Assembly (NCBI GenBank): GCA_973895155.1
Contig: OZ316891.1
Location: 1,913,324 to 1,977,323, forward strand
Direction of reading: 5' to 3'
DNA length: 64,000 nucleotides
From: Marsupella aquatica
Taxonomy: Eukaryota > Plantae > Marchantiophyta
This document shows positions 1-61,065 of the stretch, in pieces; position 1 is the stretch's first letter; every line of letters starts with the position of its first letter. Below the pieces are notes generated by a model. It saw nothing but the letters and a program-made list of their open reading frames with translations, searched no databases and had not been told where the DNA came from. The position numbers were made by a program, and so were the translations under genes.

Positions 1-3000
1 CTCTTCAGGTTGGGACACAACCAAAATATCTGGTTTTTCCCCAACAACTGAACGAGATCGTGGCACATATGTGATGACAAGTGACCATTCCTCTGGGTTT
101 GGGGGGTATGGAATATAGAAACATTATTCCACATGACTTGGAAAAGTGAACGTCTTCGATGTTTGCCAATGAGATGGCTGGAAACTAGTGGCAGATATCT
201 TTAGCGGTGTAAATCCACACTCATCTTGAAGCACGGTAGGACTGTTACCTGCAAGGGTCACTTTGAACCACTTGCACTTGAAGACATACTCTTCAAACTT
301 TGATTGTGCATCATAAGAGATCACTAGGATCTCCTCTATCTTTCCATAATGTGGCACAACATCTCAAATAATATTTGTGTCATGGCGACTGTTGCGGGAA
401 TCTTGAGAGAATTGTCCTTGAACTCCATAATCAAAGGTACGACCCCTCTTCTCATCAAGGGAAGAAACCCTAAAATCCACCAAACCATAAGGACATGTTA
501 CAAAAATAGGCATAAACATATAACAATTAATATCACATGCCAAAAAATTATCTCTTCAATATATGTGGGTGTATTACACATAAATTAAAATCACCATAGA
601 TGAAAGGTTACTAAGGTACTTGGAAATAACCTGAAATGTCTCCCTTGTGTCTACATTGCCGTCCTTGTTGTAACCATTCTCAAGGGACCATGAACAATGG
701 TACGGACATCATCTATGATAGCTGGAAAATGTAATAGATTCTCTCCCCTCGCTACCATGTCATCCACCTCAACCAACTTCTCCTTCATGTAGTCATGGTA
801 CTTTGGAAAGATCCTTGGTCTTCTACTGGTACTTTTGGCATCCTCATAGAAATCCCTCCATTCTTCCATGATAGTGCTGTTACTCAACATGAATGTGGTT
901 AGTTGTTTCAACTCCACTGGTGTCAACATGCGGGTTTTGATAGCACCTGTTAAACGATCCTCCTCATCTTCCCTCTCCTCTACCCAAGTACGGGGAGAGG
1001 TACGATCAATTGTGGCCAATATGTTACTGCAATAGAACATACTCTCTGCTGCCAAGTATCCTGTAGCCATGCTTCCCTCAACCTGTGCCTGGTTACGTAC
1101 ATAACCCTTTAATACTGCCATGTACCGTTCCAACCAATACATCCACCGACAATGCACAGGACTAGCAATGGCCACCTCATGAACAAGATGAACAAGTAAA
1201 TGCACTTGGCAATCAAAAAAGGAAGGGCCTTTTCTAACTTGCATACCACCTCTGCTGCCAGTACCTCCATTCCCGGGATCTCTTCATAGTATATCTCCTT
1301 AGAACATGTACCCATCTCAATAGTTTTCCCAATGACCAAATGGCAGATCTTGCACTTCTGAACTTGCCAAACCTATTATGGCCGCGGGCAATATATGTTG
1401 CAATAACTGATGATAGTCATGCGTCTTGAGATACATTGGCCACTTATGATTGTCCTCCATCCCAAAGGCCTTCCGGAGATTGGCACCATAACCAGTAGGA
1501 AACCGCATGCCTCCTATGCGATTCCTAAACTCCCTTCTCTGGCCAACAGGAAGCACCCATGGGGCTGAAGGTCGATGTTCTATCCCTGTGATAGGATCAA
1601 TTGTGACCCATACATCTGGATGCATCTCAAGATCCTCATAAGCCTCCCTAAAGTTAGTGTCCTTTTCTCCACAGAAAGCCTTTATCAAAGCCTTTCCCAC
1701 ATTTCCCTCAATGTGCATGGGGTCTAATAGATGGCGGATCTTCAACTCTCCCCAATAAGGCAAAGTGGTTAATATACTCCATCTAGTCAACCTGCTACCC
1801 TCAAATTGCATGGGATCCTCCGGGTTTGCCACTCTATCAGCCAAGTCTTTCCAATGTGCAAAAGTTGTTGGCTCTGGTATATCACGTTCATCACCAAAGG
1901 CCATATCAATGGAGGAAAATAGTAGTGGGTCAAACCTCATCTGATGGCCCATTGGCAGAAACTTTGTATGCCCAAGATAAACAATCTTGTGAAGGTGTGA
2001 TGAGTACTTGGCTATATCACCAAGACTTGGGCCACAAGTGGAGCAAGCCTTGTAGCCTTGGGTTTGCAACCCACTCACAAAGCCAAATCCTGGTCATATA
2101 GACACACATAATATAGAATTAGCACATGGAAATGACGGGATAACATGCATTATCATATCATGTTGGATGTAAACAAAAAAAGTGTTGTAGTTTCATAGTT
2201 CTTACCTGGGTAGTCATGCATGGTCCACATACAAACCCCTTTTAGTTTAAAAACCCGTCATATGCCCATATTCCGTCCCATAATTTTTGGAGTTCCTCAA
2301 CCACTAATGCCAAATAGGTGTCCATCATGTTCTTCACCTTCTTTGGTCCTGGGATAATCAAAGATAGCAATAGAAAGCCCTTTTTCATGGACAACCATGG
2401 TGGAAGGTTGTAATTCATGAGAACCACCGACCAAATTGATGTAGGTCTCCCCTTCCCTCCAAGTGAATGAGGGCTAACCTCATCTAATGCCAACCCAAGT
2501 CGCACATGCCGAGGGTCACACTCAAAATCTGGCCATGTTGACTCCACATGTTTATGAGCAGGAGAGTCAACTGGTAATCGCATCACACCGGGCTCCAAAC
2601 GATGCTTCTTGTGCCATACCATCAACTCGGCCAAGTCAGAACATCTATACATGTGCAACAAGCGAGAAATTATAATGGGGAACCAACGAACTGCTTTTCT
2701 TGGCACCTTCCTGGTTAGCATGTTTGGGTCATACCGTGGCTCATGACATAGTGTGCATTTTGTCATATGGGCTTTGTCCCCATGAAATAATATGCAATCA
2801 TTCACACAAGCATGAATGATATGGTAATCCATGCCAATGGATGAGAGAATCTTCTTTGCATCCTTCCAAGTTCCAGGCAACACATTCTCCAAGGGTAACA
2901 TCAAGTCATGACAATATTCAAATATGTCTGATAACATAGAATTGCTTGCCTTATGTTTGGCCTGAATGTTCAACAACCCCAATATGGCTGACAAACGACT

Positions 3001-4759
3001 CAACCGAGCACCCTCAAAGATAGGTGTCCGGGCATGTTCCTCAGCCTCCTTCCATTGTTGTTGTCCCTCTGGAGTATGTTGTGGTCGTGGGTCATTTTGG
3101 GGGGCAGCTCCTTCAACACTAATGTCAGGGACACCATCTTCAACATCAACCATGAAGTCATCCATGGCTGTGTCCTGGTCATGCATGACCTGGTCATCAG
3201 TCTGAGGTGTTGCTTCCTCATCACCATGATCACTTACATCATTACTTGATGAGGAATCATCCTCTGATGGTTCTCCCTCTTCTGGCATGCCCATCTCCCG
3301 ATATGCTGCTCTCAACCTTCGTGGTAACATTTGTTGAGATGGTTGCACATTCTACGCACGACACAACCAAAAAACCTCTTGATATATATTTCACCAGGTA
3401 CAACAAAAACAGACTTCAGACCATTCATTCAAGACAAATTAACAATCAGTTTTAAGGATTGATTGCATGCATTCACATTAAGAACTTAAGTGAAGGGCCA
3501 CACCAAAATTATACTACTCCAAAATGAGGCCAGAGGACATGTATATAATGATAAGTGTGAAGTACACACAAGGTACAAGAGGATGTATGACATGGCTCCC
3601 TAATCCCACTCATAGTGTGTGAATAACTCATCTCCAGCTCTAATAGTCCTAGTGGCAAGAACTAAGCAATGGTCCTTATGATATGTCATTCCATATGGTG
3701 CCGGCATTGGGCCATCAGTAAAAACCCACTCACAATTGGCCCTACACTTGGGTCGAGTCCCCATAGTATTATTTATAAAGCCAGCAATATTCCCATTACA
3801 TACGGGATCACCGTCTATCACCCGCTACTCACTGTACCTTCTAGTGCTACCATGAAAAGTATACATCTCTAGGGCATATGTTTTCCACTCACGATGTTGT
3901 GCAAGGATCATGTTCCAGTCTCTTCTCTTGTAGATGGGTCCACCGTATGGGAACAAAGTAGGACCCTCTCTGCCACGAGCACTTGACCCACTCCCATCAT
4001 CCATGATGATATCCTCACAAGAAAATACTCCATATCCGTGTCTCTCTCCAAGTGTGGAAGCTTTCACAATCCAACGTCTACCCCAAACCACAATCTCCTC
4101 ATCATAACCGGGAAAATAAGGCAAGCCAAGAGTCATAGGATCCCAATCTTTGATGATAGAGGCACACTTGCCAATGAATGAACAAATGCCCTACCTACCC
4201 TCAACTAGTGTTCTTGATGGGTCATTGGTTGCTCGTGGCCTCCTCTTGGACTGGGGCCTAGACCGGGGTCTTCGTGTCTCAGTGGGCACATGAGACTGTT
4301 CCTCTTCAGTCCCATGATTGGTACTGATCCCTACACCCAAGGCTTGTGAAAGTGCATTGCCTATAGCATCTAAAACTCCTTGTGATGGGACATAGGGTGG
4401 TGGTGTCACCGGTCTACGCATACGGGATCCCTATTCCATGCAAAAACCCACAAAAAACCATATGTGTAAACATTGATTCACTTATGAAAATATGAGGGAA
4501 AAAAGGCAAACAATTGAAATCCACGTACCATATGGGATGAAGAAGCCCCCGGAGTAAGACCCCTGTGACGTCCATATCTCTCAATATGTTGAGCACACAC
4601 ATAAGATTTTTGAGAAACTTGGCCCACACATCTGGTGCACTCACAAAGTCTCCAAGGAGGACCACGAGGACCGGTAACCTCAGGTTGAGGAGGAGGGGGT
4701 ACATCATCGGAGGAGGAGTACTCACTATTGGATAGTTCAGAGGAGGATGACATATCCAT
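1..4759 (-). pseudogene. CACTA Tnp2/TnpD-type transposase (Transposase_21, DUF4218 and DUF4216-like regions) with stops and frameshifts
   Basis: Motifs IHACVNDCILF, RHVRLGL, NYNLPPW, LLSLIIPGP, WTMHDYPG, LDPMHIEGNV, LKTHDYH, HLLVHL, RWMYWLER and FKCKWF. Putative exon 1 at 4759-4529 (CECTRC...HIERYG); main exon from 3351; introns at about 2205-2090 and 630-470; frameshifts near 2250 and about 1200-1350. Confidence 0.9.
3600..4430 (-). pseudogene. SET-domain protein exon carried inside the CACTA element (two in-frame TAG stops)
   Basis: ORFs 4191-4421, 3825-4136 and 3600-3821 are one reading frame broken only by TAG at 4191 and 3825. SET motifs occur in order: VKAST-x4-HGYGVFS-x2-DI, YGGPIY, GNIAGFINN, ANC, LVLATRTIRAGDELFTHY. 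Confidence 0.8.
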
Positions 4760-5699
4760 TGCTCGGGGGGTTGACTATCAACAATCTTAGGAACCACGTG
4801 CGATCCAAAATAGGTATTTTTCATATAAATTAGCTAAATTTTTAAAAAGCGTAGGAAGCAAAAGAAGGTATTATAAACCTATATTTGTAGAATATTCTCT
4901 AATATATACCTTAGAATAGGTATATATTAGAGAATAAAGTAAAATAGGTCATTACTATTGAAAATAGAGAATATTTTTAGAATATTCCCATTATAAAATA
5001 GGTGTGTTTATATTAGACTAGGATCTCACGTGGTACCCCAAAATATACACTAAGTTAACCCCCCGAGATCCACTGCCACATTACATTGCATGTAGGGCAT
5101 GATTAGAATCCCTCTCCGTCGGCCTAAAAATATCCTAAAACTAAACTGCAAAAACCCTTTTTTGTTGAGCATGAAACCCAAAGGAGAGTGTCATGCACAA
5201 AAATATCACATTGTCACCCTTGGGAAAATTGTAACGGTCTAAGCCCTGAATTAGGTTAGTGAATTACCTGAATGAGACCCGGGCTCAACAGTGCCTATAG
5301 GTCGTGTGGCTCAATGAACATGAGCCAAATCTAGAAGTAGGAGGAAAATACTGGAAACAAAATGTAAGTTTTGGATAGTCATTAGCATCTCTCAAGTTGT
5401 GGAACCCCAAACATAAGTTACACATATATATATTCTTGCAAAACAAAAAATGGCAAGGTGTATGAAAAATCTCCACTAACAACACTACATACATGTTATA
5501 CCTTTTAGATGCCTGGGTTCCCACAATGCATATGCATTAGACAAAAGTTGAGGAAGTAGTGATGTCCCTGGGCTGTATCATGATTACATGGGTTTTCCCC
5601 TCAATTGTTAGCATAAAAACCTCTTAGAACTTGCCCTCATAAGTTACCATAAAATTAACCCAAGTGTCCATGAAAATAGAACCTGTCTTTCCCTCCTAA

Positions 5700-6120
5700 G
5701 TTGGCCTAAACCCCAAAAGCCAAAACATAAACACCTCCTCTTACTCCAATACATATAAGCCAAACATTCATAAAATGAAATCCCCCTGGCCAAACCCAAA
5801 ACATAAAACACCTCATATTACCCTCCAATCTGAGCCCAACGTACCTTCATAAAATAAACCCTCCCCCAACCAAACCAAACGTCAAACATAAAATCCCTCC
5901 ATTTACCCTCCAATACACATAACCCCAACCTTCATAAAATAAAAACCCTCCCAACCAGGCAAAACCCAAAAGCCAAAATATAAATCCCCGTCTCTTACCT
6001 TCCAATATAACCCCCAACATTCTGAAATAACACTCCCCCCCAACCAGGCCAAACGCAAAAGCCGTAACATAAGACCCCTCCTCTTACCCTCCAATGTCAG
6101 CACTTTTAAACCCCCCAACC
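5700..6120. repeat. Degenerate tandem repeat (about 85-95 bp, about 5 copies) between the divergent transposon genes
   Basis: Recurring blocks resembling CCAAACCCAAAA(G)CCAAAACATAAA..CCTC..TTACCCTCCAAT. Confidence 0.65.
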
Positions 6121-6435
6121 CTTATATGATCACATGCAATGAATTACTTGTACCAAATTTAATGTTTATGACCCCTCTTAGTATCCCTACTCACAGAAAA
6201 TACACATGCGAGATGGGGGTTTTCGCAAACCCAATAGCGAACTCGTTTGAATAGTTGTATTCTTCGCAAAGATAGCGTTTGCGAAGCTGGTTGAGAAGGT
6301 AGAACCATCGCAAACTGCGATGCGAATGACTTTGCAAACCCTAACTCTACTGTCCTTATCATTTGCCGAGCGCGGACGAGGCGGATCCATTTCTTTCGGG
6401 CCTTGGGAGAGAGCAGCGCAGGCGAGGGAGGAGCA

Positions 6436-8548
6436 ATGGCAAGCAGAGGGGGAATTGGAGGTGATGGAGGAGCTTCTGGCAGCAGCGGAGGTAACCACTT
6501 AGAGGAGGAGGATCCACTTCAAAAGATCGTGGATGACCATTTCTCGGTTGCGCAGTTGAGTAAGATTGATTTCACCTCTCCAGCAGGGCTTGCATTGTTG
6601 AGTGCGTTATTGGGCCAGGCCTTGCAATCTGGTCTCAGTGCAGGGAAAGCAGCAAGAGAGGAGGAAGAAAGGAGGACAGCCGAGCAGAAGCCGCTGAGAA
6701 GAAGCGAAAGAGGGATGAGAGAGCTCAGGCTGGAGTACTCTCCCCTCAAGCCTTGGAAAAGAAGAGGAGGAAAGATGAGAGAGACTTGATGAGGAAACAG
6801 AGGGAGGAGCAGAGAAAGAAGGAGGAGGCAAGGAGGAAGCTGCCTCTGATTACATTAGAGGATGAGGGAATTCCCACAGAGCTTGCTTACAATGGGGCCA
6901 AGAGCACAATCAGACACATTGTGTCCACAAATTTTGCAAGAGGAGTCGAGTGGGGCACTCTCTCCAAGGCAGAGCAGAAGCGAATGATCAATCAGGTGAA
7001 AGATGCATTCCAAAATGGAGGAGAGATGGATTCACAGTGGCTTGCTGATAAAATCTCAAATTCCATGTCACAAGCACGATACCATGACAGGATGAAGATC
7101 AGGGCTCACCTGAGAGATCTGGTGGAGTACAGGAATTTGGGGAGGCCGCTGCAGTTCTTAGAAGATATCTGGCAGGCCTTCTATGCCACGGAGGTGAAGT
7201 TGAAAGCAGCCAGGGTCCTGAATGAATTTACAGAGAAGTTGACAAAGGCCCAGAAGGCAAAGGAGGTCGGGAAGTCTGACCGTGACCTGAAGATGATGGA
7301 GCAGAAGGTGGCCCAGCTGCAACAGGTTGTAGCAGAGGTGGGAGATCTGCCCAACAAGTTCTTGAAGGCAGTTGAGAGAGTCCGAGAAAGGCCCAACATC
7401 ACCCACAGGCTTGGTCAAGGTGGCCTCCCCGGCCTCAAAGCAGCATTAGTGAGTGCACCGCCCTCTCCTCTCTTGACTTCTTACTCCTCCAATTTCTATT
7501 CCAACACACCTGCAATGCCCCAACTCTTTTCTACTGTGGCACCAAGTACTTCCAATTGGAGTTGTTGTGTCAGATTAGGTCACGTACATTTGCTTCCCTT
7601 TCGACTTTTTGTCATAACAGAGTTTGCGAAGCAATTGCGATGCACGTCGCTTCGCAAACCTTGTTATTCACTTTTTTGGAAATAATTTTGCGATGCCCTT
7701 GTGAAGCCATGCGCATCTCAATTACTTTTGCAACCTAGTTTTCCCTTACGTTTGCAAAGCTTGAGACTTCGCAAAATTCAAAAATTTGAATTTTTGAAAA
7801 TTTCAAAACGTTCAAGTGTTGTTTGAGGGTCGTAAGTCCCCATGCCACCCTTGTAAAACCACCCCCAACCTAAGCCCCAACCCCACCAGCACCTAATTAA
7901 CCCCTCTAATTGTTTTAAGGCATTTTGGCTTGCCGTTATTGCTTGGTTTTGACCAATTGTGCCGGTTTTTGTTTTGGTTAGTACAAGAGGTACAAGAGGA
8001 AGATCACAACGCCTGAGATGGAGGTGGGCTAGAAACATGGGAAGGAGCATCTCTTTCGGCAAGTTGATCAATTATTGGTGAGCGTTAATTTTCAGGTTAA
8101 TGTGTTGATTGCATTTATGAAAAATTCCCTCTTATGTCATTCACTTAATTGTAAGGTTCTATATGACTAATGCATGGCTGGTTTGCTAATGTAACAGAGA
8201 CCGGATGATGATGGTGACTCCCATACCGAGGGTGATAGTAGCGATGAGGATGAGGAGGGGACAGGGGAGGGGAATACTGCTCCTGCTAGTCGAGTCAGGC
8301 CAACTAGCATTGGAGAGCAGTCATTTGCATCAGCACACTCCACTGATGTTGCGAGTGGTAGTGCGGTAGGGGATGGGGATGGTGATGGTGATGGTGATGG
8401 GGATGGGGATGGTGGTGGTGATGAGGATGAGGATGAGGAGGGAGACCAAGAGGAGGAGGAGGCCCCGGTCCCCCCCCAAGAGCACTCAAGGGCAAGGAGA
8501 AGGCCAAGGGGAAGAAGTCAAGGAGGGGCAGGAACTCTCCTTTCTAGC
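6436..8548 (+). pseudogene. CACTA accessory ORF2 (TnpA/Ptta-like by position), coiled-coil with an acidic tail, frameshifted
   Basis: ATG at 6436; frameshift near 6753 into the 310-aa ORF; donor GTGAGT at 7449; probable exons at about 7983-8077 and 8198-8548 with an Asp/Gly/Glu low-complexity stretch. Lies inside the CACTA terminus. Confidence 0.55.
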
Positions 8549-8829
8549 TCTATCTAGATAGGTGCCTAGATTACCCTAGAGACTTAGGTAGTTCACATGT
8601 ATAGGGGGATTAGCATGGACATGCAACTTTTAGCTAAGGGTTCTTACCCTTCCATTTTGTAACTTTTGTACATTTAAATGAGTAATGTCATTTTAATCGC
8701 GGCATTCCGGTCTACCTACATCCCTTTTCTCCCTGACTCCTTCAACTGTATGAATTGTCTCCCTAAACCACTAAACCCTATTATACCCTAATACTTCAAA
8801 AATACCTTTTGCAAAACACTTGAGAACTA

Positions 8830-9335
8830 GATGTCATCTCAAATAGCCAAGACACAACCATCACAAAACGTTCTAAACGCTCATCCTCACAAATTTTGCG
8901 ACATTTTTTCAATCGCAAATATGCGAACACATGATTTCCGCACGTTTGAGATGTGTTTAATTTTGCAAATGTAGCGAACATAAATGTATCGCAGTATTGA
9001 GAGAAAGAATGGCTTGCAATCTACCGATGTGTCCTAAATCGCAATCTGGCGATGATTTAAGCATCACTACATTAGCGTTTGTCGGCGAATCACAAATGCT
9101 CCTATAGTTCCTGCTTCGCAAATATTGCCGTAGGTATGGCATCGCAGTTGTGCGATGTTAAAAGAGTCGCAAAGTGCGAAGCTTTTGTGAAGGTCCGGTT
9201 GCGAAGGTGTGGGCATGGAAAAGAGCGAAGATGTTGAGATGTGCGGCCTTTCGCAACAAGGAGTTGGCCAATATTGTTTCCTTTGTTGCATGCGAGGGAG
9301 GGTGTTTCGCAAAAGAGGGTCATTGTGTTGTAGTG
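8830..9335. repeat. CACTA subterminal repeats and terminal inverted repeat
   Basis: Many TCGCAA/TTGCGA/GCGAA motifs in both orientations, ending in TGTAGTG. Confidence 0.75.
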
Positions 9336-12300
9336 TAGTATGCAAGAGACACAATTTCAGAAGCAAAAATTCATAAACAACTCTTTGCGCAAGTGAACTC
9401 ATTAAATTCCAAATAGACATAAGATTCACATTTCATTTCAGTGCATACTTAAGTACATCCCAACTTTATTCAAGTATACAATTGAATCAAAATTTAATAA
9501 TTTTGAGCCGCCAGAAAGTACGTCTAACTAAAACAAAAAAACAATGGTCAAGGCTCTAAGCCAAGAGAGTGATCTACACATCTTTTCTTTCTAGGTCTCA
9601 CAAGAACAGCATCCTGGCCATGCAATGATGGCCCTGTACTATTAGAGACACAAGGTGTAGTAGAGCTCACGGCTTGTACTACATCAATAGCCATTTTTCC
9701 CTTCACCATATTTTTCTGCCCCACATCTATGCTATGTGCAACAATCTTAGAAAGATTAGGAGAAATTGGAACCAAAAACATTGCTTTCTGTGAGTGACCT
9801 CTTCTTTGCAAAATCTGAAGAGCCTCATATTGCATGTTTTCCAACGTGCTATTGACTTCATGAAGCTTCTGAATTTCTGCTTTCAAGCTTACTTTCTCTT
9901 GCTTTAGTTGTTTACTTTCTCTCTACGTAAGGCACTAGAATTACACATCTTGGCTACCAACGCTGGCCACAACTGTTCACAAAACATAGACTCGAGCTCT
10001 ATGAAAGACTCTTTAAAGTCCTTTAGCTGGCCCAGAAACTTTTTTGAAACATCCTTCAATTCATGTTTGTTTTCCATGGCGTAGTCCTGCTCTGAAAGAA
10101 ATTTCAAACCTCAAATAATCACATTTCAGAAGTATGCTTGCTTCAAATCATATTTACAATCTACCTTTGGAGAACTTTGTCTAATACTCACAGGCTGGGT
10201 TAGTCCATAATACAAGGTGTACAATACGAATGTACACAGCAGTAACAGTTTGTATACTTACAGACTACAGTGACGGCAGTTAGCTTAGACGGCTCAGTCA
10301 ACACAAAAACAAGGGAACAAATTATAAAGCAGCTAAGGCAACAGAATGATGAATGCTCCAGCCATCCAGCGTCCCCTCTGACATACATATTAGTACAGAA
10401 GAGAGGGACGACAGAGTTCTCCAACCCATAAATCCATCGAGAGATATACTTAATGGTTTAATGGATAAACCGAAGAATGGGAGCTTGAAAGGATAGCGTG
10501 ACAGGATGAATGGGCAGTACTACTATCACTAGATACCTGGGCTTTTCCGAAATGCATGTCAAAAAAGGAGGGCTACAAGTTAGGCAATCCGTTCGTCGTC
10601 ACGGGTCGTTTTCCTCTAAGTGGGCTGTTGGAGCACTTGATTCCTATAGTAGAGTAGAGCTGCTCCCGAAGCTGCTGGGGAGTGGTGATTGCATGCATGC
10701 ATGCTCGCTTGCACTAACAGACCCACCCTCAGGTCTAGTTGGCAGTGTGGTAGTATTTCGACGTCTCACCTATTCTACGAAAGCTTCTTGGGGCTGGGGT
10801 AGGGGACAACGGAGACATCTTATTGGCCATTGTCTCAATAGAAGGCAATGGGAAGAGCTGAATAGAAACTTAGCAGCGACAGCTCAACCGAGAGAGCATC
10901 TCAGAGATCAAGAACAAAATAAAGAGAAAATAAAGAGAGCTCACCAGAACTTTCGCTGCTGAGTGAAGCAGTATTTCAGTAAGGAGAGACCGAGAATGAA
11001 TTGAAATCAATCAGCAACAAGCAACTTTGTTGCCACCACCTTCGATCAGCAGCAAGCAGTTTCGCTCCACCTTCGATCAGCAGCAAGCCCTTTCGCTCCA
11101 CCTTTTGCTGCTGAGTGAAGCTGAATTTCAGTAAGGAATGGAGAGGCCGAGAACAAATTCGAGCAAGCAGCAAGCAGGTTGAATTGAATTGAATTGAAAC
11201 TACGACTGCTAAACGGAGCCCCCAACACAAATCAGGTTGAATTTAATTTAATTTAAACTACTACTGCTAAACAGAGCACCCAACACAAATCATCCGAAAT
11301 ACAGCAGTATACGAGATTGAGCCAGGTATCGACTGTGGATTGTTGTTTACTGCTCCAAGCTGATCGAATGCTCGATGCTGAATTTTGAATGCTCTTCGTG
11401 ACTACTTTAGACGTTGATTTCTCTCACTAGTGTTTAAACACAAAGGCCATATTCAGGGCGTCGTCCATAGTCCATATACAAGGCCGAGGTAGTTTGCAGG
11501 GATACCAGGAGAAAAGAGGCGGTGGGAACTGGGACTACAATAATCTACACTAAATCCATTGAAGCCCGTTGCACACAGCACGTGTCAAGTGTGAATTTTG
11601 TTTTATTACCCAAGTGAGTTCAGGACCTGCAAGGTCCGGAAAGGTTCCGGTCCTTGCCTTCACATTTCCTGAGTTTATGCCGTTAGGACTGGCAGGGCAG
11701 GAGGTGACGGCATCTTTCTCTCTTTCACTAGCATGCTGCCGACTGTCAGTTTTAGGGCCGCAAAGGGTAGGACCGACTCCATGCGAGTTGGCTCCAGTGA
11801 AAGGCCCAGCCACTGATGGACCAGATTAATTGATAGGCTTTTGTCTCATACCAATCACTAAATACATGACACTACGTTGATGTCATCAAAGTGCTGTGCA
11901 TTAATTAATTGCGTGTGAATCTAGGGAATCAATACTAGGTACATCTCACATTCAGCTCAAAACTCAATCTTGAGGCTCATTAAGAGCCTCTGTACACAGC
12001 TGCCCACATACGCGATCAGGCAGGTCCAAGTTTTTTCGAAGTACCAATAGAGTATTAATGAACCCCACTTTTAGGTGGGGTGAATGACAAAAGCTGTATC
12101 AGCGCCAACAGAATTTGAAACTCTACACTGAGCTCTACACCTCCTGGACCCAGTGAGCTGCTCTACCATGCAGCCTTGGGGCAGCTTGTGACCCAATACT
12201 TAAAGTGATACCAGGTTCAGAAAAAGTGGGCAGTGGACAGCTAGCTAGGTACATGGCTAATCCTAATCAATGCTAATCACATTGATTAGCCTCCATAATG

Positions 12301-17542: not shown

Positions 17543-17766
17543 CTCACGTACTAATATCCTTGGTAGCTCACACACACTGGTGGTCCTCCTGGAGTTTGGG
17601 CCCTTCTGGAGCCTATTTAAGCCAAAGCAAGCCCGTCAAAACTTCACATGGTGATCGGGAATTAATTCCAAGCTGTTGAAGAATCTTCCTTCGCTGATAG
17701 TTTATCCACTAGTCCTGCGGCGTTGTTGGCAAGTGTCAGGATTAGGGCACTTATCCTTTTAAGCAA

Positions 17767-19245
17767 ATGGAGGATCCTCTCGATTGGGCATCGGATGGAG
17801 AAGACGACCTCCTCTATGACAGTGAAGAAGATGGCGACATCCTCTATGAGAGTGAAGAAGATGACTGGTGTGAGAATGACAAGAACAATGAGCAGTCAGG
17901 CTATGAAATCCTAAGTCAGGGGTACATCCAGCAGCGCCAGGAAGACGTGGTTTCTACGGTCACCAGGATCCTACCATTCTCGAGGCCTGAAGCTGTTGTT
18001 CTTTTGCAAAATTTGGATTGGAGGGTCAGTAACGTGCTTGAGGAATGGGCTGCAGATGACTACGGAATTCGCGAATTTGTGGGGCTTGTCCAATCCCATC
18101 CACAACAGGAAGAGGAAAGGAGATCTCTTCCAGACATGACATGCGGAATCTGCTACGAGTCGCACAATTTGGAGCGAATGAAATCGGCCGCGTCGTGTAG
18201 ACATTTCTTCTGCGACACATGCTGGACGTCATACATTCACACCTCCATTGAAGAAGGTCCAGACTGTTTAACTCTGCGCTGCGCTGATCCGTCCTGCAGC
18301 GCTGCTATCATGGAAGACATGGTTCTGTCGTTGGTCTCACAAAAGGACGGAGCCAAGTATGCAAAATTTCGGCTAAGAGCGTTCGTGGAAAGCAGAATAA
18401 CGGCCAAGTGGTGCCCGGGTCCGGGGTGCGAGTATGTTGTGGATCGTAAGCATCGTGCTGAGTCGTTGTCCATTCTGTGCAAGTGCTCCCACAAATTCTG
18501 CTGGAATTGTTTGCAGGAGGCTCACCGGCCTGCAGATTGTGAGACTGTTGCAAAGTGGGTTCTGAGATCTGGTTCAGAATCCGAAAACTTGACCTGGATT
18601 CTAGAGAACTCCAAGGCTTGTCCCAAGTGTCAGCGACGGATAGAAAAGAATGAGGGGTGCATCCATATGACCTGCCAGGCACCCTGCAGGTTTGAATTCT
18701 GCTGGTTCTGTCTTGGAGATTGGACGAGTCACGACGAAAGAATCGACGATTGTAATAATGACGCTGCCTTGAAACAGGGTCAGCTTGATGCAGCACAAGA
18801 ACGAAGAAACATGGCTAATGACTATAGTTACACGCATTTCTATGAACGCTGGGTTGCGACTGAGTCTTCCGGGACTAAAGCCCTTGAAGTTCTTCAGCAC
18901 GTGCAGTCCATGATAGTCGACAAGCAATGCCAAACTAAGTCCGAATTGGAATTCTTGAATAAAGCATGGCTGCAGATCGTCGAGTGTCTCCAAGTTCTGA
19001 AGTGGACGTATGCACATCGCTACTATCAACCTGACCATGATCAAATGTTGGAGTACTCGCAGGAGGCAGAAGCATTACTGGAGAGACTCCAGGAGTGCGC
19101 CCAAAAGGAGGTGCAACAATTTCTTGACGGTCAAGAGACTCAAACTAGTCTCAGCGAGGACCGTATTAAACTTGTAAAATTGACGACTTTAGCAGAAGAG
19201 CATTTTGAGCACTTTGTACAATACGTGGAGAATGGACGCGCGTGA
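17767..19245 (+). CDS. ARI: ARIADNE-family RBR E3 ubiquitin ligase, single exon, 492 aa
   Basis: Acidic N-terminus; RING1 CGIC...CRHFFCDTCW; IBR WCPGPGC...CKCSHKFCWNC..EAHRPADC; RING2 CPKC..RIEKNEGCIHMTC..C.FEFCWFC; Ariadne domain LKWTYA. Confidence 0.93.
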   Translation: MEDPLDWASDGEDDLLYDSEEDGDILYESEEDDWCENDKNNEQSGYEILSQGYIQQRQEDVVSTVTRILPFSRPEAVVLLQNLDWRVSNVLEEWAADDYGIREFVGLVQSHPQQEEERRSLPDMTCGICYESHNLERMKSAASCRHFFCDTCWTSYIHTSIEEGPDCLTLRCADPSCSAAIMEDMVLSLVSQKDGAKYAKFRLRAFVESRITAKWCPGPGCEYVVDRKHRAESLSILCKCSHKFCWNCLQEAHRPADCETVAKWVLRSGSESENLTWILENSKACPKCQRRIEKNEGCIHMTCQAPCRFEFCWFCLGDWTSHDERIDDCNNDAALKQGQLDAAQERRNMANDYSYTHFYERWVATESSGTKALEVLQHVQSMIVDKQCQTKSELEFLNKAWLQIVECLQVLKWTYAHRYYQPDHDQMLEYSQEAEALLERLQECAQKEVQQFLDGQETQTSLSEDRIKLVKLTTLAEEHFEHFVQYVENGRA

Positions 19246-30891: not shown

Positions 30892-31407
30892 CTATTCCTG
30901 CATAGTTCGCGTCGATTGCCTCTTTGTGGCAACTTTGACCTTGATCTCGTCCGACAATTTGGGTAACGTAAGGCTCGGGTCGGCTTGCAGAGCCAGAGGG
31001 GCCTTCACCATATGGATACTCTGCTCCAACTCGGCTGCAGCTTCCTTCCTTTCCGTTGACTTCTTGCTCTTCATTCGGCTCTCCCAGAACTTCGACTCCC
31101 GCTTCACCCGCACCTCCTCGATCTTCTTAATTGCCTTAATGGTCTGCTCCACCACATTCCTGTCATACCTCTCAGGCCTATTCCGCCTCCGCTCAAGCTC
31201 GAACGTCGTATCCTGCGCGAGCTCCTTCCCGTGCAGCTTCCTGTACGCCTTCGTCCACTTCACCTTCCGTGGATTCCTCTTCATTTTGAAATTCTTGTGA
31301 CATTTCGACCTGCAGAACCGAAACACCTTCGCATCATTACGCACGAAAGTAATCCCATGGCCGGGATACACCGTCGAGGAACAGAACCAGCAGTTCTCTA
31401 ATCTCAT
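30892..31407 (-). CDS. RLP24: Ribosome biogenesis protein RLP24 (eL24 paralogue)
   Basis: [56 protein letters not shown]. Confidence 0.96.
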
Positions 31408-31660
31408 CGCTGCGGCTGTCGCGGTTCCAGCCGATCACTCTCCTTCCTTCTATTTCTTCTCTCACCCACTTCAATCCGCTCCAATCTGCCCAAATCCGCG
31501 GCAAAAGTGGCAGTAATTGGGGTCTAGGAGACGATCAACCGAACCGAAAACCGAGAGAATTCTCGAGCAGAGGAGGTGATCTTCCAGAAACAACACCTCG
31601 TGATCGAAAGAAGAAGACCGTCAGAAGGGAATGAGGTTTCTGCTGTAACCCTACACTCCG

Positions 31661-36460: not shown

Positions 36461-38425
36461 AACTACTCATTGTGTTGTCAGAGATAGTAACACCTTTCAT
36501 CAAAGACATTCCTATGCTAAATGACGGCCTCTCCATCCGAATCAGCAATGCACAAACTATCCATCCAAATCAGCAATGCACAAACTAGCCCGGTCCTCCA
36601 ACACCTCAATTCACCAATCTGTAGTTGCGCATGGACAGTTCATGGCAACAGCAGTTAGAGGAAATAAAATCATTCTCGTTGAAATTTGTTTGTGGTATCT
36701 ATGAATTACAATTTCATACAATCTAAAGTATGTTCCAACATGGCCGCAACCCTTCTGACAACTTTACTAGAAAGATCATTCAAGGCAAGCTGGCTGTTTG
36801 GTAGCTCAATTGTTATCGAGCGTTTATCGAGTGCGTTGTAACAAGCGGAAAAAGGGTTATGGGTTTTTGGCAGACTATAGACTGAGTATGTTTTTGCATG
36901 AACCAGGTCTCTTGCCATTGCATTTGGCTTGGAGTAGGAAATGCAAAGCACTATGGCTCAATAGAAAGATTGCAGCAAGACAAGGAGATGGAACAAAAAG
37001 TTTTCCTATCAAAGTTGACACTTTTCTTGTTCAATATGGAAGTGACAAGGTGTATAAAGCGACAAAATTAAGTTTGTTTTACGGCTTGATTTTCCTTTCA
37101 AGGGGAGTCATTTTGTGTGTTTACACACAAAGTGCGAATACATTTGTCTCGATACCCCCCATATTGCGGTTTTTTCTCGTCCACAGTCGTGGCTGCAAGC
37201 TGCACAACACTGCCAGTGCAATTTGCGTGCTCATTTGCCCTCTGCCCACCACCGGTCGGCCGCCCTGGCCACACCCTTCACGGCCCGCTTCACGGTCCCC
37301 TCTCGCCCCTTCACGTTACGGGCATCGGTTGACTATAAGAGCTTTTGGGCCAATCTAAATGTGCCATATCATCATTTTATGTCTCATGATGTGACTATAC
37401 AGTTTTGACGCATGCATAAGTAGTTTTCTTGAATGTGCAAAGAAAGTACACTCACACTGTTAAACATACTGGACGGATCCTGTTTATTGTCTAAGTATGC
37501 TAGAACATTTGTGGCCTATTTGTCGCAGGCATGCCCTCAACGTTGGCCAATGGGCTTGGACCATTACATGTATAAGGTATCCCGTATGCCTCCCAGAATA
37601 CACGGGTCGACATATGGTCGACCTTGATACGCAGTAATGGTCCATCGCAGTATTTTAAGGTCATGTGTTGATAAATATTACGACCCATCTCCATTGAATT
37701 CTCAACAAGTGTACCTTTCAATATTGCATTAAGGTCATCAGGGTGATATTTTGCTTTTTGGGGCTTTAGGCTACTACCAGGTTAGCACTTTTGGCTTTGA
37801 TTATATCTCGTTACAAAATGATCATATACTACTTAGACTTTTTATCCTTTTTATCCCATTAAGGGACTGGCCCGGTCCTTAACTGTATACATTACAAATG
37901 GTACTAATCTCTCTGCACATTTGAGCATTGAAAACTGTGTGAAAATAAGGTAACTCTGAGCCAATCAGAACTCAGCACATGACCTGTTAGTAAGATGAAG
38001 GACGTATGTATCCCTTTAAGAGAATACGGTCTCCCCTATTTCTCCCCGCGTACCTCGTAAAGGCTACCGTACGTCCTTAATCCTAAACATTATTCCTTTG
38101 CTCCCCGGATATACAGTAGTCACAACCTCGCGACTGTGTATGCAACCACGGGCAGTACTCCCCACGCCCACGCCATCCCCAATATTCTGTGCTGCAACTC
38201 GGCTGCAGCTTCGTTGCAGTCTGTTGACTTCTTGCTCGCTCGCCAATCTGCTCTCTCAGCTCTTCGACTTGCGAGTCTTTCTGCAAATCCGCGATCGTTT
38301 GTTAGGAAGGGGTCTCACTAGGCTAGGGACCGATGGCGCAGCAGAGTATTGGATCGAGGAAATTTGACAGAGGAATAGGAGGAGGAGGAGGAGGGGGAAG
38401 TTTTGGAGGATCAATTACAACGACA

Positions 38426-58320: not shown

Positions 58321-59339
58321 ACTATAAAATTCAGCAAAAAGCAAAAGAAACTTAACACCACTAGTGACTCACTAATAATTTTCTCATCTTTATAAATATT
58401 CCTTTTTGCTGGCGTTATACAATACCTCAGTGAAACAAAAACAAACTAAGGGGTGTTTTATTCATTTTGGGGTAATAGTTAGAAGTCTAACTACCCTTTA
58501 ACCTGGCCTTTAACCCAAGTTCTTTTTCTTTAATGTACTAGCTTGGGTGCCCCTGCTTTGATGATGAAAAGAAGTGAGTACATTCAAGCATGCTGCACCA
58601 TTCATTTTTGGAGACTTTAGTTACATGACTTACCTGTCCCCACCCCAATCCCTGCTTTTTGCTGACACCCCCAACTTTAATTACACCCCCCAATTCACTA
58701 TCTAGAGGCTTCACTCTAGACCATAGGCCCTTAAAAGTAGTGAGATAGTGATTATATAGCTACAGTAGATAACTCTAACATACTAGCCCAAGTGTCAGTT
58801 CTTTAACATAAATAGCTCAGGTGAGGACATTCACGCCTGCTACCCCAATCATCTCTAGAGACTATCCGGAACCCCATTTTCCACCCTCATCCTCAACTTC
58901 AATTAGACCCCATAGTCAGCCCAAAGTCACATAGTCTAGAGACTACATGATTAGATGCCTCTTTGGAAGTTTCATTTCATGACATAATAAATGTGATACA
59001 TAATATAGGTTACCTGTGTGTAGCCATCTCCTTGTTGTTTTCATAATCTATTGCCCAGAAACTTGTGATAGGTAACTTTGTTCTATCCCGCTTTAACATA
59101 ATATAAAGACGGTTTGGGCTGGGGTTCTAGTCTGTTCCCAGAGTGCTCAGAAAGCTTCCACTCTATCTCCTGTGAGCTTTTGTTAACTTTCTGGTCATAG
59201 AGTTATATCCTAGTAACCCCCTAGAGCCTAGTAAGCCCATGACTTCATGCCTACCTCCGTTAGCATTTCTTCACCTTCTGTTCAGAGGGTTACATCCTAG
59301 TAATTCCCTGGTAAGCCCATGCTCTCCTTATCCTATAAT

Positions 59340-60135
59340 TAGCAAAGCTTACTGCAGTGACTAAGGTAAACCATGGTAGCTTCTATCTTTATTTTATAAG
59401 TAGTAATTAAAGCTTACTGCACTGACTAAGATGAACCATTGTAGCTTATGTCTTTACCCTTTAAACCACCACTAGCCATGACAAAAACAACCTGGTTACA
59501 CCACAAAATGGAACGGGAGAGGAGAAGAATGAGAGAAAAGTGAGAGAAAGAGAGAATTATTGGACACCTTACCCATTCTTTTATATGGCTAGTGGTGGTT
59601 TAAGTAGTTTACTGCACTGACTAAGGTGAACCATGGTAGCTTCTGTCTTTATCCTATAAGTAGTAAAGCTTACTGCAGTGACTGAGGTGAACCATGGTAG
59701 CTTCTGTCTTTATCCTATAAGTAGTAAAACTTACTGCAGTGAATAAGGTGAACTATGGTAGCTAACGTCTTTATCCTATAAGTAGTAAAGATTACTGCAG
59801 TGACTAAGGTGAACCATGGTGGCTACTGTCTTTATCCTATGAGTAGTAAAGCTTACTGCAGTGACTGAGGTGAACCATGGTAGCTTCTGTCTTTATCCTA
59901 TAACTAGTAAAGCTTACTGCAGTGACTGAGGTGAACCATGGTAGCATCTGTCTTTCTCCTATAAGTAGTAAAGATTACTGCAGTGACCAAGGTGAACCAT
60001 GGTAGCTTCTGTCTTTCTCCTTTAAGTAGTAAAGCTTACTGCAGTGACTAAGGTGAACCATGGTAGCTTCTGTCTTTCTCCTCTAAGTAGTAAAGCTTAC
60101 TGCAGTGACTAAGGTGAACCATGGTAGCTACTGTC
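59340..60135. repeat. 61-bp tandem array (about 9 well-conserved plus 2 diverged copies)
   Basis: Unit AAGTAGTAAAGCTTACTGCAGTGACTRAGGTGAACCATGGTAGCTTCTGTCTTTATCCTAT; it shifts by 1 nt per 60-nt line. Confidence 0.95.
59461..59603. mobile_element. Non-autonomous TIR mini-element (MITE) inserted in the 61-bp array
   Basis: TTAA-ACCACCACTAGCCAT ... ATGGCTAGTGGTGGT-TTAA. An uninterrupted array unit has a single TTAA at the equivalent position (CCTTTAAGTAGT, about 60019). Confidence 0.75.
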
Positions 60136-61065
60136 GTGTGACGTAGGCGAAGTTCGTTGGGCGGGTATGGTATTGCGTGCTGGCTCTCTCTGTTCCATGG
60201 GCGACGAGTGTCCTGAGCGCCAATCGAGCCTCGATGGATTTCGCAAGAGATTTGTGCAGCACGGCTTTGTGACATCCGCAGATGACTGTGATGAGTTTTT
60301 CCTATCGACCAATTCCCGAGACTGTCACCACCTTCTTTCCATTCTTAAATGTTGTTGTGGGTCTTACTTTTCTCCAGTTCCTCATAGCCTGCTCCCACTC
60401 TGTCGCTTGTCGATGTCGCGTTTTGGTCTCGAAGATTTCGTTACCGCCTTTCCGTTCCTAATGCGTTCTGATCTGCAGTCCCTGATAGTTTCCGCTTTGC
60501 GGTAGCTCTTGTGGATCTGGACCAGTTGTGCTGATGCCGGAGGTGCCGACCGCGTGGTGCTCTGTACCGTTACTGGTTCTTGACAATGTGGTGAGTGCGC
60601 ACCGGTTGCTTGCTTGCTTGCTTGTCCGGGAGTAATTGCTGCCTCCAATCGAGAGTGGCTTGATAGAATTGCGCTGAAGTTTGAATTCCCAGGGCTCTTA
60701 ATTTGACGCTGTGGCGTTTTGTTTGTGAACCGAAATCTGCTCTCGTCTGCTCTCATTGATGAATGGCCTTGGGAGAGGGTTTGCGATCAGCTTACGAGAG
60801 GCCCTTTCAAATGAGTTTGGAAGATTGCGGTTGGGCCCTTTGACCCACAGTAGGAGCTCCTGATTGCGGGAAATCCGAGCTTCACTTTGTGATGAGGAGG
60901 GAAGTTTAGGGCGGGTTGTGTGGGAACAATGCATTTGATGTACGGGAAGGTGACCTGATTTCCGACCTGATGTGGTTTTTATCTTTACCAGGCCGGCGTC
61001 AATTTAAAGTTTGAAAGTGTCCACCGGGCGATCCCATTTTAGGGTTGGCAGCCGAGCAATTGAGA

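Follow-up and report, generated by a model that had tools for sequence, protein, structure and literature searches.

What is a SET domain doing between two exons of a transposase gene? The question arises from a 64,000-nucleotide stretch of Marsupella aquatica DNA (contig OZ316891.1, positions 1,913,324 to 1,977,323; hereafter the window), in which an initial annotation, made from the sequence alone, placed a SET-domain lysine methyltransferase inside a CACTA transposon and proposed it as a new built-in gene of the element.

The window element is a copy of a CACTA/EnSpm DNA transposon, with a CACTA terminus, an inverted repeat, subterminal motifs and a Tnp2-type transposase that combines PF02992 with PF13960 (DUF4218) (Table 1). 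The nearest longer relatives of this transposase are CACTA transposases of Riccia and flowering plants, and the window copy is frameshifted near 1219-1345, where it carries indels relative to other copies. The second end of the element falls beyond base 1. Termini like the one in the window begin related elements in five metagenome loci with four different flanks (L007/L039, L010, L030 and L041), and contigs from two sequencing runs (X1 and X5) end at 9335-9336, matching the element edge. The pentamer TCGCA/TGCGA occurs 14 times in the 536 nt from 8800 to 9335, compared to 62 times in the 54,665 nt of the window that lie beyond the element, and 10 and 16 times at the two ends of the complete relative L030. 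Such clusters are likely to mark putative binding sites for an element protein. The same pentamers also cluster at 6150-6400 and 7550-7800, flanking the first exon of ORF A.

ORF A, an accessory gene that diverges from the transposase, lies upstream of the SET exon in 8 of the 13 loci with at least 2.5 kb of upstream DNA. In the window it is damaged by a frameshift near 6690 and a TAG in its exon 2. Its product holds conserved lysine-rich stretches and matched neither a Pfam family nor a known fold significantly (model pLDDT 55). It is possibly a TnpA-like gene. Between the two divergent genes, where their promoters should lie, positions 5780-6110 hold three to four degenerate repeats of 85-92 nt.

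Table 1. Parts of the CACTA element in the window, from its terminus inward.
Feature	Position	Strand	Basis or detail
Terminal inverted repeat (CACTACAAC...TTTTGCG), CACTAC terminus	9308..9335	-	sole element end within the window
Subterminal region rich in TCGCA/TGCGA	8800..9307		motif clustering
ORF A, accessory gene oriented divergently	6436..8557	+	predicted exons 6436-7448, 7982-8077, 8198-8557
First coding exon (exon 1), 77 aa, C-x-C-x2-C-x13-H-x4-G	4529..4759	-	spacing as in CACTA transposases
Predicted GT-AG intron, 98 nt, phase 0	4431..4528	-	Sphagnum P0002 and Calypogeia P0089 models join exons here
SET exon, 276 aa: variable linker, conserved N-terminal extension, SET core	3600..4430	-	core ~4079-3612, stop 3600-3602
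Non-coding spacer	3352..3599	-	predicted 3' UTR of SET form and 3' part of transposase first intron, AG end
Transposase exon 2, Transposase_21 first part, phase 0	2245..3351	-	PF02992, E 5e-31
Further transposase exons: Transposase_21 second part, DUF4218, C-terminal piece	127..2093	-	Pfam

The initial annotation had pieced the SET domain together from three short ORFs, and its particulars were borne out. The minus-strand stop-to-stop frames 4191-4430, 3825-4190 and 3600-3824 form a single frame, interrupted solely by TAG codons at 4191-4193 and 3825-3827. Reading through them gives the motifs GYGVFS, YGG, GNIAGFINN and GDELFTHY, and the frame stops 3 residues past the catalytic tyrosine, without post-SET cysteines. 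The minimal domain is all present, but it is not the whole product: the prediction is a protein of 353 aa encoded by two exons (77 + 276 aa), with the domain at its C-terminus and a conserved extension of ~45 residues ahead of the first SET motif.

Both profile and fold place this domain among SET proteins. The read-through, with X at the stops, matches Pfam PF00856 at 28.1 bits (E 2.8e-6), above the cut-off of 22.4 bits, in a check that the annotation had proposed. An AlphaFold2 model from a 65-row alignment (pLDDT 90, pTM 0.85) gave 323 Foldseek matches in the PDB at E≤0.001, exclusively SET structures, with LegAS4, SET8 and MLL at the top. Among the 50 VIA matches listed, SET/PR proteins account for all but a few with Z≤8.1, the best having Z 12.0 and an rmsd of 2.6 Å over 124 residues, and giant-virus SETs match the model with similar strength. 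As modeled, the exon product certainly has a SET fold. Because Set1, EZH2, SET7/9, SET8, NSD2 and LegAS4 are effectively tied (VIA Z 12.0-10.9), the fold names no substrate. Sequence searches against PDB entries returned nothing at E≤10 with the single read-through (phmmer) and weak matches with the family profile, LegAS4/RomA being closest at E 1e-3. PHROGs and NCBIfam each matched just 1 of 65 family members, weakly.

The SET exon recurs well beyond the window. Of 101 candidates from a word search, 52 proved to be relatives. The named ones, 58-76% identical, belong to species of Sphagnum or to the liverwort Calypogeia fissa, and a single cluster comprises 360 sequences. A full scan of 1.84 billion proteins yielded 83 representatives at E≤0.001, down to ~28% identity, and 5 of the 20 that we looked up are Riccia sorocarpa models. 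Annotated relatives of the exon thus named occur in Sphagnum, Calypogeia and Riccia, including a Riccia model (P0138) whose SET is just 43% identical and continues directly into Transposase_21. Scans that reach close relatives only gave 6 pattern matches in viral_contigs and 15 in genome_contigs, none confirmed.

We then compared the surroundings of the exon in metagenome loci. The SET is held by 41 of 42, which were used (L042 had no real match and was dropped); since they derive from few metagenomes and mostly one family, the 41 are not independent. Transposase exon 2 lies downstream in 21 of the 25 loci with at least 400 nt on that side, the other 4 being truncated SETs cut at residue 187-240. 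Of 20 loci, 17 have exon 1 upstream; the SET of the other 3 begins at residue 127. The placement between transposase exons 1 and 2 that had been read from the window alone therefore holds across loci. One locus contains a whole element of 9,893 bp (L030:6045-15937) with both CACTA termini, one bearing a single change, and with ACA on each side as a 3-bp target duplication. Four public runs gave 1,007-5,748 contigs per run on window positions 1-10500, over the SET exon and the transposase alike, a depth of contigs that does not equal copy number. The SET exon is intrinsic to this bryophyte CACTA family, which has reached high copy number, and it is transposed together with the element as a whole.

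Two kinds of rearranged copy also appear among the loci. The three SET fragments that start at residue 127 (L022:3285, L034:10000 and L037:10000) have no element sequence upstream; in our reading, they represent a piece that was truncated or transduced and now lies in host DNA. At L019:2387-2449, an internally deleted derivative has transposase exon 3 nearly abutting the right terminus, with the 3' part of the SET exon kept.

The window copy itself is decayed. In all four runs, both stops are read as sense codons (Gln, Trp) in 98-100% of the depth, and the second asparagine of the "NN" motif (place 3769) is serine. Both TAGs and the "NN" belong to this copy and not to the family, so the suggestion that an NH-to-NN change might alter the activity of the family's enzyme falls away. 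An open SET exon was present in 4 of the 20 loci with enough DNA, and many named SET gene models are full length.

Between families, the SET is under purifying selection (dN/dS 0.15-0.20). By the Nei-Gojobori method, the SET core of the window compared to 30 distinct loci has dN 0.178 and dS 0.898, a ratio of 0.198, and codon bootstraps of three SET pairs gave ratios of 0.15-0.19 with intervals inside 0.09-0.30. Exon 1 gives 0.16-0.20 (0.199 for the window against the loci), the transposase exons 0.115-0.18 and the linker 0.445 (both window against loci). ORF A, at 0.135-0.165 (0.165 for the window against the loci), is under purifying selection as well. Among close copies, the ratio is 0.74 for the SET and 0.51-0.85 for the transposase; within the SET, private changes give 1.2, a neutral value, and changes common to at least four copies give 0.59. 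Near-neutral close copies with few open SETs are expected for dead insertions when selection acts on active master copies only, and this pattern adds no support for SET function. Taken with the recurrence across 41 loci, these results leave none of the findings that would have undone the original proposal: there is a SET match, it is not confined to one copy, and its evolution between families is not neutral.

How would the element express a SET exon embedded in its transposase gene? The donor at the end of exon 1 is a phase-0 GT in all 19 loci. The SET exon is preceded by an acceptor AG in 21 of 25 by script (three read AA and one is shifted by an indel), and its stop stays at the same position in all 26 loci. 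For transposase exon 2, which starts in phase 0, the preceding dinucleotide is AG in 20 of 23 loci, and there the spacer measures 139-150 nt; the window's spacer is unalignable between families by blastn, save near the acceptor. Because the phase of exon 1 matches that of the SET exon as well as that of transposase exon 2, alternative splicing is likely, and we hold with good confidence that one transcription unit gives rise to two predicted splice forms. The first would join exon 1 to the SET exon to make a 353-aa protein consisting of a zinc module, a linker and the SET domain. In the second, a 1,177-nt intron containing the SET exon would be removed to make the transposase. The SET is thus probably an alternative terminal exon that has the transposase's first coding exon in common, a feature that the initial annotation missed. 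There is precedent in Arabidopsis Spm3, in which, according to the accessible text, one gene makes the transposase and the anti-silencing protein TnpA by alternative splicing (bioRxiv 10.64898/2026.08.24.746577).

The spacing of the cysteines, histidine and glycine of exon 1 is found in 5 of 5 CACTA transposases carrying PF13963, and distant SET models, Riccia among them, keep the motif, one of them scoring weakly on PF13963 (E 0.03). The window exon itself has no Pfam match and an exon 1 profile scores PF13963-bearing transposases at a weak 5-7 bits, so that homology to the core of the CACTA transposase-associated domain, which exon 1 resembles, is likely rather than proven. No other N-terminal CxCxxC-H module is present in the transposase, and exon 1 is likely common to both proteins. 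As a counterpoint, transposase exon 2 has a methionine at codon 8 and could start independently. A search for full-length transposases of the family starting at exon 1 returned models from Riccia and flowering plants only, and one Riccia transposase model (P0209) begins at the exon-2 equivalent, which is compatible with sharing or no sharing.

We next considered whether the product could be an enzyme. Among homologues down to ~25-30% identity, the two G-x-G glycines are each kept in 59 of 62, the glycine of Y-x-G in 61 of 63, the tyrosine that follows it in 63 of 63, the SAM-binding asparagine in 56 of 64, the G-x-E residues in 54 of 58 and 55 of 57, and the catalytic tyrosine in 51 of 56. The canonical N-H-S motif is absent: 61 of 64 homologues read N-S, with serine in place of the motif histidine. 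After the catalytic tyrosine, the near family has only 3 more residues and distant members mostly 2-18 (1-27 among the 45 rows listed), leaving no post-SET segment to close the SAM and lysine sites. The family also has extra invariant surface motifs unlike host SETs (L-F-P-Y, D-G-D-P and N-x-A-G), and its motif set of N-S without post-SET appears to differ from those of host enzymes. Under the Phe/Tyr-switch rule, a small residue two positions before the catalytic tyrosine would permit multiple methylation; the family has Thr, Ala, Val or Cys there, so multiple methylation would be allowed.

The missing post-SET segment and the lost histidine speak against activity. In SET enzymes, the motif histidine contacts SAM via its backbone. 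The best solved relative, LegAS4/RomA, reads YINFS at this site and trimethylates H3K14, according to the part of the source available (PMC10653858), so loss of the histidine is tolerated in an active enzyme. The same part of that source describes the post-SET segment as aiding SAM and substrate binding in most SET enzymes (PMC10653858). LegAS4/RomA, SET8, SET7/9 and giant-virus SETs resemble the bryophyte domain in having a SET fold without zinc pre- and post-SET clusters, and LegAS4 also lacks the motif histidine. However, identity to LegAS4 and these minimal SETs is just 18-28% with weak scores, and LegAS4 has a post-SET segment and ankyrin repeats. On balance, the conserved motifs suggest that the predicted SET product is an active enzyme, which we consider reasonably likely.

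If so, it would act as a SAM-dependent lysine methyltransferase. The zinc module, likely common to both products, would target the SET either to the DNA of the element or to one of its proteins, for example that of ORF A. The SET protein would then mark chromatin at the element's own copies, keeping them transcribable or shifting them away from host silencing. Given activity, such targeting, with a histone substrate and an effect that opposes or redirects silencing, is somewhat favored. A separate accessory gene weakens the case for the SET as anti-silencer, since ORF A could itself fill that role. The model as a whole, a decayed copy of a bryophyte CACTA element whose splicing would make a zinc-module-SET protein that serves as a self-targeted histone writer favoring transcription, falls a little short of an even chance. 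More tentative still is its broadest form, that a moss and liverwort transposon lineage splices a zinc module onto a minimal histone methyltransferase, without a close host SET relative, as enzymatic, self-targeted anti-silencing.

Other explanations must be weighed against this one. The broken state of the window copy and of most fetched copies would suit a passenger fragment of a host SET gene, of the Pack-CACTA type and functionless for the element. Yet no canonical host SET is evident among the 83 matches (E≤0.001) from 1.84 billion proteins, the nameable minority being the family's own bryophyte models; purifying selection is seen at dS ~0.9; and the SET occupies the same position in moss and liverwort elements. 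We regard a passenger as extremely improbable, and a one-off host capture was rejected because the SET recurs across copies and species in a fixed layout under selection between families. A catalytically dead or weak SET fold might instead serve as a binder or decoy, covering a histone tail, titrating away a partner of a host methyltransferase or tethering the transposition complex to one type of chromatin. Such a role would account for the absent post-SET segment, the serine at the motif histidine and the extra surface motifs, but a pure binder need not keep the glycine motif, the asparagine and both active-site tyrosines, all of which are kept family-wide. This seems quite unlikely.

Two further possibilities accept an active methyltransferase and change its target or its effect. 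The substrate could be a non-histone protein, whether the element's own transposase, the ORF A protein or a host silencing factor, with methylation tuning transposition. The SET protein has no reader or pre-SET domain, ORF A offers its lysine-rich stretches, the zinc module in common could bring the splice forms together, and the tied folds include SET7/9, an enzyme with many non-histone targets. Set against these points, the closest solved structure by both profile and Foldseek is a histone H3 methyltransferase, a weak match by profile (E 1e-3), and published transposon SETs are called histone methyltransferases, by homology only in the text accessible. We think a non-histone substrate unlikely, if still worth consideration. 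Alternatively, an active histone methyltransferase could restrain the element, by placing a repressive mark on its own copies or because splicing to the SET diverts transcripts from the transposase, and so limit harm to a haploid host. The layout makes the two splice forms mutually exclusive, EZH2 is among the tied top folds, and H3K27me3 can mark transposons outside flowering plants, as the available part of one preprint describes (bioRxiv 10.1101/2022.10.24.513474). But the family reached high copy number, judging by the 360-sequence cluster and the thousands of contigs in public runs, and the element regulators VANC and TnpA, as described in the accessible text, activate rather than repress (bioRxiv 10.64898/2026.08.24.746577). 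Self-restraint is, in our estimate, a rather improbable outcome.

Our preferred reading, a self-targeted histone writer, has partial parallels in known systems. From what is accessible of the sources, SET genes are carried by HarbingerS and Phytophthora MuDR families (PMC12730594) and by Helitrons as well as Plavaka elements of red algae, which belong to the EnSpm/CACTA superfamily (bioRxiv 10.1101/2025.02.11.637652). The general idea of a transposon-borne SET is therefore already known, and the initial annotation, right that the SET is built in across copies, overstated its novelty. HarbingerS, MuDR and Helitron elements resemble ours in bearing a SET lysine methyltransferase gene but belong to other superfamilies and hosts, and the accessible descriptions mention no exon shared with a transposase. 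Plavaka is closer, a CACTA-superfamily transposon with a long-kept SET, PAG2, described in the available text as a putative chromatin modifier. By that description, PAG2 is a separate gene in which the SET is fused to an N6-adenine DNA methylase, within a three-gene PAG1-3 cassette of 17-19 kb elements, whereas in the bryophyte element, of ~10 kb, the SET exon sits within the transposase gene itself, which is of the canonical plant type (PF02992, PF13960). A cassette of the PAG1-3 type is absent from the window element and L030, and by Pfam the full-length members show the SET alone, with no methylase domain.

In maize Spm and Arabidopsis Spm3, as in the organization that we infer for the bryophyte element, one transcription unit of a CACTA transposon yields transposase or regulator. 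Spm makes TnpA and TnpD from one gene, and TnpA is, in the text available, a DNA-binding protein and not an enzyme; in contrast, the alternative product of the bryophyte element adopts the fold of an enzyme, and ORF A is an additional gene in divergent orientation. What is new here is the host group (land plants), the canonical plant transposase and the nesting of the SET exon in the transposase gene. We found no paper on a land-plant CACTA element with a SET exon, though Repbase, subscription journals and preprint supplements, which lay outside the search, may record one; the accessible parts of PMC11982613 and PMC12973397 contain nothing on such a SET.

The plant anti-silencing factors described so far in the accessible literature, VANC and TnpA, are DNA-binding regulators, and transposon SET genes are known there from algae and oomycetes by homology only. 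The bryophyte family offers a candidate writer of ~350 aa, represented by intact members in the sequenced genomes of Sphagnum and liverworts, such as Sphagnum CAK9871772.1 and Calypogeia CAM6127501.1. Land plants thereby become a direct test bed for whether histone marks on transposons are written by the transposons themselves. Many models named "SET domain-containing" in Sphagnum, Calypogeia and Riccia are transposon exons and would inflate counts of host chromatin genes.

The history of the lineage can be sketched from a midpoint-rooted SET tree of 61 of the 65 rows, four short rows being omitted. The window, Sphagnum and Calypogeia SETs form a supported clade of 14, within which moss and liverwort (Sphagnum P0002 and Calypogeia P0089) are 77% identical, while Riccia sequences, P0108 (40%) among them, fall outside at 37-42%. 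Such a tree would be compatible with several ancient lineages of the element, or with its horizontal exchange among bryophytes that grow together, an exchange that is possible.

Several minor features were recorded along the way. A 1720-aa Sphagnum balticum model (P0215) joins a WRKY domain, a piece of the family's transposase exon 2 and a DEMETER-type glycosylase; it probably reflects annotations that were wrongly merged where an insertion lies close to a DNA demethylase gene. In the window, an intronless ORF at 17746-19242 (plus strand) encodes an ARIADNE-type RING-IBR-RING ligase (Pfam IBR) and is possibly a retrocopy. Another intronless ORF, at 30895-31434 (minus strand), is presumably ribosomal protein L24/RLP24-like, and a 54-nt piece of it recurs at 38184-38237. 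Finally, positions 59322-60215 contain a tandem array of ~11 copies of a 61-nt unit.
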